In this document: positions 353 to 19,469 of the stretch, one piece after another
How positions within the stretch are numbered: position 1 is the stretch's first letter
Layout: the number at the start of each line of letters is the position of its first letter
Assembly: GCA_051294375.1 (NCBI GenBank)
Contig: JBJCIZ010001353.1
Coordinates: forward strand, 1-19,710
Source of the DNA: Paraspadella gotoi
Lineage: Eukaryota; Animalia; Chaetognatha
Reading direction: 5' to 3'
Length of the DNA: 19,710 bases
Program-made: the position numbers and the translations under genes
The notes under the pieces: generated by a model
What the model was told of the DNA's origin: nothing
What the model saw: only the letters and a program-made list of their open reading frames with translations
Databases searched by the model: none

Positions 353-641
353 CGAGGAGAAATGATTGAAGGAATTTTTTAGAGTCGAGATGGAGAAAAA
401 TATAGATTTAAAAGTTTAAATCATACTATTTATAATTTTTTAAAAATTGGCTATTGTGGTCATTGACGAATGCACCTTTATAAATAATGTCATCATCCTC
501 ACCACAAAAGCCGAATGATTTTTTCGGATATCTCTAGCTATTTGCAATTTTGTAGCATTAAGATTATGTTCTTTAAATTTTCATTCGGTTTTCTTAAAAT
601 GTTTGGTATTTATGGTGGACTAAAATCCACTAACCGTTCAT

Positions 642-709
642 GCCCATTGGTGCGGAGGCAAGTCATTCGCCTCCCACCAAAGGTCCGGGGTTCTAGCCCG
701 GTGGTCGCC
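642..709 (+). ncRNA. tRNA-Gly(CCC)-like Pol III head in 5' LTR (not a functional tRNA)
   Basis: A-box TGGTGCGGAGG (648-658), B-box GGTTCTAGCCC (689-699), T-arm CCGGG/CCCGG, D-stem GGTG/CATT, anticodon region CGCCTCCCAC as in tRNA-Gly. Anticodon stem degenerate. Confidence 0.75.
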
Positions 710-787
710 TAGCAGTTTAGAGGGGGACGGGCGCTTATACCCGCTGTAACTCGGTGTTAAGCCTGATCCGAAGCTCAAGGGACTGCT
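710..787 (+). ncRNA. Twister ribozyme, type-P5 (5' LTR copy)
   Basis: TAGCAGTT..GGGG-GA-CGG-GCGCT-TA(T)A-CCC-GC-TGTAAC..GTTAA-G-CCTGA-TCCGAAGC-TCA(A)GG-GACTGCT; same architecture with a few 1-nt indels. Confidence 0.7.
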
Positions 788-839
788 TATATAGAACGGT
801 TCTGTCATTAACACTTATCAATAATTACTGTCTTTCCAT

Positions 840-852
840 TGGTGAGCCCGAC
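840..852 (+). promoter_or_regulatory. Primer-binding site, tRNA-Trp-like
   Basis: TGGTGAGCCCGAC matches 12/13 to the tRNA-Trp PBS TGGTGACCCCGAC(GTGAT) known from avian retroviruses; directly after LTR1. Confidence 0.75.
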
Positions 853-1013
853 TTCCGAACACAACAGCAACAACAACACTTTCAGGCGACATGCTCAACT
901 GGCGATGCCACTTTCCGCCCACAACACATCAGGCGACAGCCTCAACTTTGGTGACGAAACTTTTCCACCAACAACAACAATTCACTGAAGAGACGCAACA
1001 GACTTCTCCCTAC

Positions 1014-1022
1014 GGAGGGGGG
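1014..1022 (+). promoter_or_regulatory. Polypurine tract
   Basis: GGAGGGGGG ending 1 nt before the TG of LTR2. Confidence 0.8.
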
Positions 1023-1053
1023 CTGTATGTGGACTAAAACACTAAGTTCATCA

Positions 1054-1129
1054 GCGGGCCATTTGGTGCCGGAGGCAAGTCATTCGCCTCTCCCAACCTC
1101 AAAGGTCGGGTTCTAGCCGGTGGTTCGCC
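1054..1129 (+). ncRNA. tRNA-like Pol III head in 3' LTR
   Basis: Acceptor stem GCGG(G)CCA / TGGT(T)CGC; A- and B-box-like motifs as in LTR1. Confidence 0.7.
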
Positions 1130-1207
1130 TAGCAGTTTAGAGGGACGGGCGCTTAACCCGCCTGTAACTCGGGTTTACAGCCTGATCCGAAGCTCAGGGA
1201 CTGGCTA
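1130..1207 (+). ncRNA. Twister ribozyme, type-P5 circular permutation, minimal P1 (3' LTR copy)
   Basis: P5 TAGCAGTT/GACTG(G)CTA; P2' G-run then GA-CGG; linker GCGCT; TAA (1154-1156); P2 CCC; GC (T2); P3 CTGTAAC/GTT(T)ACAG; P4 CCTGA/TCAGG; L4 TCCGAAGC (canonical UCCCAAGC). T1 is CCG/CGG instead of CCC/GGG. Confidence 0.8.
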
Positions 1208-1277
1208 TAAAGGAACGGTTCTGTCTTAACACTTATCAATAATTACTGGTCTCTTCAGTATGATCAATTCGCGTTAC

Positions 1278-4735: not shown

Positions 4736-4944
4736 CTAGAGTTAGTTAAACGTATTATTAGTAACTAAAATTAAATAATTACCCCGATACTAGTATACTT
4801 TGTTGGTATTTTTACATTTATACATGAAAGGCCAGGTTCTCTACAAGAGAGTCTTGTATGTTAATTGAAAATTGCAAAGTCTGCTATGTTATTATCTTTT
4901 AAGAGGGATGAAAACTAACCCCTAGGGCATAGCCTGTCAAATAA

Positions 4945-15372: not shown

Positions 15373-15609
15373 CTGGATTGTTATCCATTAAATTGATTCA
15401 ATGCTAGATTGTTTTATCTATATTTATTCTTTGATATCATCAATTCTTGTTATCTATTATGCATTCATTCATTCAGTAGTTAGTGTCCTTCGTATATGTT
15501 TAATTTCGTTCACTTTTATTCATCTTCAATTCATTTCATTCTACTATCCATACATTTTTTTATTTCACTCTTTCCTTCATTTATTTCATTCCTTAAATAC
15601 TTACTATCC

Positions 15610-16880
15610 ATTCAATCCATCCAGTCCATCCCATCCAATCCATCCATCCGGTCTCTCCCTCCTACATTTCCATCCATCCATCCATCCATCCATCTCTCCT
15701 ATCAATCCATCCATCCTTCCATCCCTTCCCTACATCCATCCATCCATCCATCCATCCCTCCGACATCATCCATCCATCCATCCTCTGACATCCATCCATC
15801 CATCCCTCCATCCATCCGTCGCCTCCCTTCCCTACAGCTATCCATCCTTCCATCCCTCCCTACATCCATCCATTCCATCCCTCCATCCATCCATCCGTTC
15901 CTACCTCCCTACATCATCCATCCATCCCTACATTCCCTGCCCTCCCTTCCTCCTTACATCCCCTCCTCATCATCCAATCCATCCATCCATCCACCCTCCC
16001 TACATCCCTCCTCCCTTCCTCCTTACATCCCTCCCTCACATCCATCATCCATCCATCCCTCCCTACATCCATCCATCCATCCCTACATCCCCCCTCCCTT
16101 CCTCTTAACATCCCTCCCTCATCCATCCATCCATCATCCCTCCCTACATCCCTCCCTCCCTCTCCTCCTTACATCCCTCCCCCCCCCATCCATCCATCCA
16201 TCCATCCCTCCCTACATCCATCCATCATCCCTACATCCCTCCCTTCCCTTTCCTCCTTACATCCCTCCCTCCATTCCATTCCATCCATCCATCACATCCA
16301 TCCCTCCTCTTACATCCCTCCCTCCCTTACCTCTTACATCCCTCCCTCCATCCAGTCCATCCATCCATTCCTCCCTCCATGCCATCCATCCATCCATCCA
16401 TCCCCTCCCTACATCCCTCCCTCCCTTTCACTTACATCCCTCCTCCATCCATCCATCCATTCCATCCCTCCCTACATCCATCCATGCCATCCATCCATCC
16501 ATCCCTCCCTACACTCCCTCCCTTCCTTCCTCTTACTCCCTCCCTCCATCTCATCCATCCATCCATCCATCCATCATCCATCCATCCATCCATCCTATCC
16601 TCCATCCATCATCCATCCTCCTCCCTACTCATCCTACTCCATCCCATCACTCTTCCATCCGTCACCTCCGTTCCTCCCTAATCCTCCATCCAATCACCTC
16701 CATCCCTCCCTCCTACTGCCCATCATATCCCATCCATCCATCCATCCAATTCCCCATCCTCACATCTAATAAATTTCCAACTCCTCCCTTCCTCCCTACA
16801 TTCCTCCCTCACATCCTCCTCTCCATCGCATCCATCCCTCAGTCTCCCTTCCTCCCTCATTTACCCCCTCCTCCCTCTCT
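15610..16880. repeat. Degenerate (CCAT)n/(CCCT)n microsatellite filling a CLCA intron
   Basis: About 1.3 kb of ccat/ccct/ctacat units, almost G-free on the + strand. Confidence 0.95.
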
Positions 16881-18289: not shown

Positions 18290-18753
18290 CTGACCTCTTT
18301 TATACTCTCTGGATTTTTTTTTCGTCTTACCTGATTTACTGTTTAATCTAACAGTTTTGACTTGAACTCGTCTGACATTTTTTGACTTTAAGTCAGTCTG
18401 ACCTCTTTATAACCTACCTCAATGTGATCTTTTAGCTTGTCCTATAGTTTGACCTTTTTGACTTAAACTCGTCTGACTTCTTTAACCTGGCCTTAATACT
18501 TTGATTGAACCTGACCTCAATCAGAACTTTTGGCCTGCCCTTGATGTTACCTTTGATATTAGTCTCAGTCTGACTCTTTATGCGCTCGATTTACATTTTG
18601 ACATACGCTTGACCTGACCTTTTAATTGTCTTAAAGTTTCTCCTCCTCAATTTGTCCTCTTTAACGTGACCTCAACCTGACCTCAATCTGACATTGACTT
18701 AACCTCTTGACCTTACCTCCTCGACCCCTCTAACCGGATCTAAAACTGACCTT
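18290..18753. repeat. TGACCT-rich degenerate repeat, intronic
   Basis: Ten exact TGACCT on the + strand plus TGACTT/TGACAT variants. Confidence 0.75.
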
Positions 18754-18773
18754 TCCAAATTCACTTAACTCAC

Positions 18774-18974
18774 CTTCAAACCCAAAACTGGATTCCCTTC
18801 ACCGAATTTGGCCACAACGCGAATCACGATCGCCGACGGATAAATCACGTGAACGGATTGGACGCTGGCGGTGATCGTCACAGTCGGCTCTGGAGGCGGC
18901 GGCGACGGCTGCTGCTGCTGCTGCTGCGCTGTTATGGATTTGCTTTTGCGTCGTCGCTTCGAGGTTACGGTCAC
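18774..18974 (-). CDS. CLCA: CLCA-like exon with poly-Q/poly-P insert
   Basis: Open 67-codon exon; VTVTSK...VTITAS..YPSAIVI..GNPVLGLK resembles LTVTSR..PITVTS..FPSPLVVY..GASPILRAS. Confidence 0.85.
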
Positions 18975-19293: not shown

Positions 19294-19455
19294 CCAATCA
19301 ATCAATCGTTTAAATAATCATTTAATCGAGCAATTGGTCAATAAATTAATAAGGTAATCATTTAAACAATCAATCAATCATTCGGACGATTATTCAAACA
19401 ATCAATCAATCATTTAATCAGTCAATCTTAACCAATCAATCAATGAATCCAATCA
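19294..19455. repeat. Degenerate (CAAT)n microsatellite, intronic
   Basis: Repeated caatcaat units. Confidence 0.85.
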
Positions 19456-19469
19456 CTCTGTTTCCTCAC

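Follow-up and report, generated by a model that had tools for sequence, protein, structure and literature searches.

A miniature LTR retrotransposon of the chaetognath Paraspadella gotoi with a predicted P5-type twister ribozyme core in its LTR

Could a small non-coding LTR retrotransposon of an animal cut its own RNA with a twister ribozyme and be replicated through an RNA circle? The question was raised by a 19,710-nt stretch of Paraspadella gotoi DNA (contig JBJCIZ010001353.1, referred to as the window, to which all positions refer). A preliminary description, made from the letters of this stretch, had pointed to a pair of LTRs in which a tRNA-like unit was directly followed by a twister fold.

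Structure and mobility of the element

The element was a miniature LTR element of 648 bp at window positions 610-1257, without coding capacity, and its features are listed in Table 1. The two direct repeats, expected at about 230 bp each, were 229 and 234 bp long, and their alignment of 247 columns had 209 matches, 7 mismatches and 31 columns with gaps. The GTAT target-site duplication (TSD), the primer binding site (PBS) of the tRNA-Trp type and the polypurine tract (PPT) that had been described were all recovered. The duplication was seen at this one site, and 12 of the 13 PBS bases were identical to the complement of the 3' end of A. mellifera tRNA-Trp (PMC10886601, Fig. S2). The lack of an open reading frame was confirmed as well, since the longest stop-to-stop frame within the element was 77 aa and none of the 92 window frames searched against Pfam (92 tested of the 143 open frames listed) gave a match, nor did any point to a helper. 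The TG..CA ends were found in the 3' LTR, whereas the 5' LTR started with TT as written; the public contigs described below carried TG before 611. A length below 1 kb, two LTRs, no coding sequence, a PBS and a PPT adjoining the LTRs, a TSD and dispersed copies are the features of a TRIM, which the element almost certainly is. The window sequence was noisy in indels, as a contig of the single-copy flank showed 12 gap columns in 143 bases, and the intactness of the window's own copy therefore cannot be judged from it. The tandem unit of about 50 bp inside the internal region (873-975) was bounded by CAA-rich tracts.

Table 1. Positions of the features of the element and of its insertion site in the window
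Feature	Position	Strand	Evidence
Left target-site duplication, GTAT	606..609	+	Sequence comparison of both flanks
5' LTR, 229 bp, TT start as written, CA end	610..838	+	Public contigs with varied loose ends ahead of 611 and past 833
tRNA-like head, 5' LTR; degenerate A box ~648-658, B box 689-698; approximate boundaries	641..710	+	
Twister-like copy of the 5' LTR in the P5 permutation, interrupted as written by four single-base indels; cut predicted after 736	722..780	+	Alignment to 3' copy; no descriptor match
Internal region, 185 bp, non-coding, CAA-rich, tandem ~50-bp duplication 873-925 / 921-975	839..1023	+	
PBS, tRNA-Trp type, 12/13	840..852	+	
Polypurine tract, 9 purines	1014..1022	+	PPT-LTR junction seen in public contigs
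3' LTR, 234 bp, TG..CA	1024..1257	+	Repeat alignment
tRNA-like head, 3' LTR; B box 1109-1118; approximate boundaries	1053..1123	+	
Alternative hairpin, exclusive with twister fold; predicted cut in 7-nt loop	1140..1170	+	-14.8 kcal/mol, z -3.2
P5-type twister core, 3' LTR (predicted)	1141..1198	+	Descriptor match; viral-contig controls
Right target-site duplication, GTAT	1258..1261	+	Flank contig of run X2 ceases aligning at 1258

No second copy of the element was found elsewhere in the window. Other repeats were present there: a long degenerate (CATC/CCCT)n satellite at 15600-16870, degenerate TGACC/TGACT-rich and TCAA-rich repeats at 18340-18790 and 19298-19460, and, at 2398-2470 and 4878-4940, a short repeat in two copies that have diverged (84% over a 31-nt match) and may represent a further small mobile element.

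The evidence for further copies came from contigs of public DNA-type sequencing runs of the source organism, which were aligned to positions 500-1400. Four runs yielded 4880, 6499, 1424 and 507 such contigs. No run recorded as RNA was among those listed, and X6, which may be of RNA, was left out of any reading of expression. The summed depth in run X2, which is not a copy number, was 1e5-1e6 over the LTR bins as against about 90 over the flanks, and the internal region was likewise at high depth in the public contigs. Contigs that left the LTR behind 833 entered dissimilar flanks (103, 106, 78 and 32 contigs in the four runs; agreement 0.50-0.54). The passage from the LTR through the PBS into the internal region was continuous in record 23 of X5 and records 29 and 30 of X6, and that from the internal region through the PPT into the LTR in record 32 of X6. 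The right junction of the window's own insertion was present in X3 (record 16) and X5 (record 24). In X2, a single record overran both ends of 500-1400 with a depth of 91 on each flank, and its alignment ended at 1258, beyond which 340 bases of the record remained. This suggests that the insertion site is unoccupied in X2 and that the break falls precisely at the duplication. The insertion (606-1261) thus appears polymorphic, with its right junction in X3 and X5 and an apparent empty allele in X2. The many copies, the LTR-PBS and PPT-LTR junctions and the apparent empty site support a mobile, many-copy element of the LTR type, in agreement with the LTR-retrotransposon reading of the preliminary description.

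Only part of the tRNA-like unit that had been described for each LTR could be retained. A B box was matched in both LTRs, at 689 and 1109. The A-box pattern gave no match in either LTR copy of the window, and an A-box-like form was visible in the loose ends of the contigs. The head region, which may resemble tRNA-Gly, did not form a cloverleaf in folding; ARAGORN found no tRNA in the window, and Rfam gave no tRNA match at E<=1 on the window or at E<=10 on 600-1270. Judged by its letters, the tRNA head is real at the level of the boxes only. Helenus elements likewise conserve the boxes without a functional tRNA (Kojima 2024, PMC10886601).

The twister-type core and its short linker

The segments of a circularly permuted twister of type P5 followed one another at 1141-1198 of the 3' LTR. 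They comprised P2' (1141-1143), GA (1144-1145), T1' (CGG), a short linker, the predicted cut between U1154 and A1155, P2 (CCC), GCC, a P3 hairpin and a 5-bp P4 with the loop UCCGAAGC. The U/AA motif, the GA, the GC..GC and 3-bp pseudoknots, P2, P4 and L4 of the type were thus present. Canonical letters stood at the general acid and base (the catalytic A and G), in the two pseudoknots and at the A of L4. T1 was CCG/CGG instead of CCC/GGG, being altered on both sides, and P2 had one C-A mismatch. In twisters of type P1, flaws of P1, P2 and P4 are tolerated, and the catalytic A and G, the pseudoknots and the A of L4 are critical (McKinley 2024, PMC11662667). The core was complete in the 3' LTR only. 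The preliminary description had placed a twister in each LTR; the part of this claim that stood is the P5-type core of the 3' LTR, while the 5' copy was broken at four core positions as written, P1 was stunted in the motif, and the proposed check with the Rfam twister models turned out negative (no match at E<=1 on the window or at E<=10 on 600-1270, with the gathering score of RF02684 not reached).

The motif was compared with RF02684. The order P2'-GA-T1'-P1-UAA-P2-GC-P4/L4, the catalytic A and G and both pseudoknots were shared, and the spacing of a 3-nt P2 and a 5-bp P4 is found in natural matches of the model. The motif differed from the model in that the 8-bp P1 hairpin was replaced by a linker of 5-6 nt, in T1, in the presence of a P3 hairpin and in the lack of an Rfam match. 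Descriptors for the P1 and P5 orders were built from the twister columns in Liu 2021 (PMC8501958), with P2 of 3-4 and P4 of 4-5. The P5 descriptor, which was composed after the motif had been seen, had one match in the window (1141-1198). Shuffles of the whole window gave 5 matches in 195 Mb and those of the element 4 in 207 Mb (9 in 402 Mb). Chance matches without cleavage activity are expected about 2.5e-5 times per element. The alternative of a P1-type motif whose 3' strand lies downstream was rejected, since its descriptor had no match.

Viral contigs served as controls. Among nine pattern-found loci run on Rfam, five matched Twister-P5, four of them above the gathering score, and the descriptor recovered all five, partly by construction. 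Three of the four strong matches had a 3-nt P2, and one of them (L088, 57.1 bits) also had the 5-bp P4 spacing; both unusual spacings therefore occur in nature. These four (L067, L088, L106 and L116) are type-P5 twisters, three of them with an added P3 hairpin. The CCG/CGG form of the P5 pattern was found at 48 loci in viral contigs, none of which fitted the full descriptor. An exact scan with 19 bases found 11 metagenome loci, all with unrelated flanks, and no viral locus.

The P1 hairpin was absent from the motif. The linker in its place had 5 nt in the window and 6 nt in 98% of the X2 depth. It was self-complementary (-8.3 kcal/mol as a duplex); only five of the 643 six-mers of the element paired as strongly, and two of these five were the two linkers. 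A search for natural P5 twisters with a 6-nt linker gave no convincing precedent. The stem filter was passed by none of 86 genome loci and by 4 of 20 viral loci; two of the four were tandem P1-type twisters, and the other two, with one sequence between them, had no Rfam match. L132 was rejected as a precedent because it is such a tandem. Together with L146, L247 and L254 it forms a set of head-to-tail pairs of P1-type twisters in viral contigs, with cut sites about 48 nt apart and Rfam scores of 37-42 bits each, below gathering. L241 and L257 carry at 501-535 a P5-like pattern with a 6-nt linker and a 3-bp P2, without Rfam match, which may be a chance pattern or an odd twister. P1 has been reported to be dispensable in twisters (PMC8501958; PMC11662667), so the cutting form may also be a monomer whose P1 is small or absent.

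Variation between copies was examined in the contigs. At 1147-1204, only 1169 (in the P3 loop) and 1173 were listed as substituted at 2% of depth or more in two runs, compared with the U5 substitutions 808, 815 and 818 at 30-58% of depth. The invariance of the core is soft, since the variant table misses at least one difference (1174) that is implied by other tables. The low variation of the core relative to U5 would loosely fit selection on the core, although a young family would be uniform anyway. Overall, the sequence evidence supports a P5-type twister core in the 3' LTR that is predicted to cut itself, and an active ribozyme in the family is quite probable.

Predicted folding and proposed processing of the transcript

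We put the chance at about even that this Helenus-type element acts as an LTR retrozyme, whose RNA would be cut twice into a 418-nt unit, circularised and copied by a Gypsy helper; given an active ribozyme, the circle would be the probable route. Pol III would begin transcription within the 5' LTR, at its tRNA-like head, and continue to a T-run at 1278 in the flank. Both twisters would then cut, after 736 and 1154, and release 737-1154 without a terminal repeat; the predicted cut sites lie 418 nt apart, as the preliminary description had estimated. During cutting, P1 would be absent, reduced to one pair, or built between both copies through the self-complementary linker. The resulting ends, a 5'-OH and a 2',3'-cyclic phosphate, would zip into a hairpin like that of 1140-1170, in whose loop a host ligase of the RtcB type would join them. 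The cuts would remove R, and reverse transcription primed by tRNA-Trp would proceed round the circle and restore both LTRs, after which a Gypsy integrase would insert the DNA with a 4-bp duplication. Plant retrozymes similarly lose R by a double cut, circularise and undergo tRNA-primed reverse transcription round the circle (PMC4918200). The 4-bp duplication and the Trp-type PBS point to a Gypsy helper, as has been argued for animal Helenus (Kojima 2024, PMC10886601).

The folding predictions were mixed. Nested folding in context, a method that cannot model pseudoknots, disfavoured the active stems (P3 0.00, P4 0.08). The alternative hairpin at 1140-1170 was matched by 1 of 200 shuffles and formed first in 5'-to-3' folding. 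The two ends left by a double cut might form a similar hairpin, with -16.7 kcal/mol when the letters of the 3' LTR were used and -9.6 with the noisy 5' copy, and the predicted fold of the noisy monomer left the two ends unjoined. Such an end-pairing hairpin would suit a tRNA-type ligase and might prevent the circle from being cut again; in plant retrozymes, a blocked hammerhead keeps the circle from re-cutting (PMC4918200). The predicted 418-nt circle, taken from the noisy window copy, was 54% paired (z -0.2 relative to shuffles), and it was thus not the highly self-paired monomer of the LTR retrozymes. A value above 70% is stated for metazoan retrozyme RNAs (PMC7761336). Neither LTR had a T run of four or more, and the element had one T4 run for a mean of 2.6, a scarcity without statistical significance (P 0.19). 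In many animal Helenus LTRs of the PMC10886601 supplement, a T-run was seen by eye directly behind the tRNA boxes, as opposed to none of four or more here.

The motif might instead be the relic of a twister, or an inactive look-alike, within an LTR of an otherwise ordinary TRIM of the Helenus type. The missing Rfam match, the missing P1 hairpin with no precedent in the searched genome and viral loci, and the prevalence of alternative folds in the nested predictions agree with this reading. However, every residue that is critical according to McKinley 2024 was canonical in the 3' copy, with the T1 change made on both sides; the high-depth variants lay in U5 and the P3 loop with none listed at core residues, and chance matches are expected at the very low rate given above. 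In our judgment, a relic or look-alike is rather unlikely.

We consider it rather unlikely, too, that an active twister merely forms the 3' end of a linear RNA. In that case only the 3' copy would cut while the 5' copy was held in the competing hairpin, and an R of about 95 nt would be left for ordinary LTR strand transfer without any circle. The strength and early formation of the competing hairpin, the lack of T4 runs in the LTRs and the unexceptional structure of the predicted circle are in line with cutting at one copy, but the LTRs are identical and offer no evident reason for it, and the plant LTR retrozymes cut at both sites (PMC4918200). Two independent SINE insertions or a local duplication with a chance GTAT match are highly improbable. 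The repeat does begin with a tRNA-like head in the fashion of a SINE, and the 5' copy lacks TG as written. Against this, contigs pass without a break from LTR through PBS into the internal region and from the internal region through the PPT into the LTR, the depth of the internal region is itself high, and the apparent empty allele lacks all 648 bp, which together largely remove this explanation.

Relationship to known elements and meaning of the finding

The element is probably a Helenus, judged by its layout and boxes rather than by sequence alignment. It shares with the Helenus TRIMs, or TRIMp3 (PMC10886601), a length below 1 kb, two LTRs with a tRNA-like B box, a PBS, a PPT, the lack of coding sequence and the 4-bp TSD of the animal families. 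Its layout was shared by Helenus-2_SyJa and Helenus-2_SyUm of Synergus wasps, with a TGTGG-like start, a tRNA-Trp PBS identical to that of the element in 13 of 14 bases and, following the tRNA boxes, a motif like that of a ribozyme. That motif resembled, by eye, a type III hammerhead, in contrast to the twister type found here: both LTR sequences had a CUGAUGA and GAAA core, three stems and complementary loops I and II. Among the five CTGATGAG occurrences in the Helenus supplement, only these two could be fitted to a hammerhead by eye. The main text of PMC10886601 contains the word "twister" 0 times and "ribozyme" once, in a reference. The Synergus Helenus-2 LTRs would make a published candidate for an LTR retrozyme of an animal. 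No twister within an LTR element was found in a literature search by titles and the beginnings of abstracts, with most subscription papers outside its reach. The earlier supposition that a tRNA head and a twister had not been combined in an LTR element before thus agrees with this literature, although a tRNA head with a hammerhead-like motif is seen by eye in the two Synergus LTRs.

The plant LTR retrozymes (PMC4918200, PMC7761336) are also non-coding LTR elements in which each LTR has the ribozyme at an equivalent place, with a PBS, a PPT, a 4-bp TSD and an R-removing double cut, the last being predicted for the present element. The same position in both LTRs was found here at the level of the motif. 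Unlike the element, the plant retrozymes have a type III hammerhead, a tRNA-Met PBS, circles of 600-1000 nt and highly paired RNA. They are described from plants only, without Pol III boxes in the cited parts of these papers, and their circles have been shown, whereas those of the element are predicted. The Rfam hammerhead models gave no match on the window or on 600-1270, the motif being of the twister type.

Among animal elements, the twister T-variants of Schistosoma Perere-3 (Liu 2021, PMC8501958) likewise lie in a retroelement, with similar P3, P4 and L4 sequences and a weak or absent P1. They differ in their P1 permutation and in occurring once, 5'-terminally, in an autonomous non-LTR element that has no LTR, PBS or circle. 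The animal non-LTR retrozymes (PMC7761336; bioRxiv 10.64898/2026.07.22.740005) resemble the element as small repeats with one ribozyme per unit and with circles, some of them cutting as dimers, but they have type I hammerheads, are tandemly repeated and linked to Penelope-like elements, and lack LTRs, PBS and PPT, which reviews state for metazoan retrozymes (PMC7761336). A broader and doubtful idea is that the ribozyme is an exchangeable module in Pol III-driven LTR retrozymes of animals, a twister here and a type III hammerhead in Synergus Helenus-2. Lacking its own P1, the twister of this family would cut as a strand-swapped pair to which the two LTRs of a single transcript contribute, which would limit cutting to full-length RNA, and the same bases would then refold into the hairpin that offers both ends to a tRNA ligase.

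The LTR retrozymes described so far come from plants and carry hammerheads, and the retrozymes described from animals are of the non-LTR kind. If the twister of this element is functional, the circle route of LTR replication would reach animals, a twister would have a defined job inside an LTR element, and the question of how the Pol III transcript of a TRIM obtains its ends would be answered. Ribozyme specialists would also find interest in a natural P5 twister that lacks the P1 hairpin and may cut as a pair.
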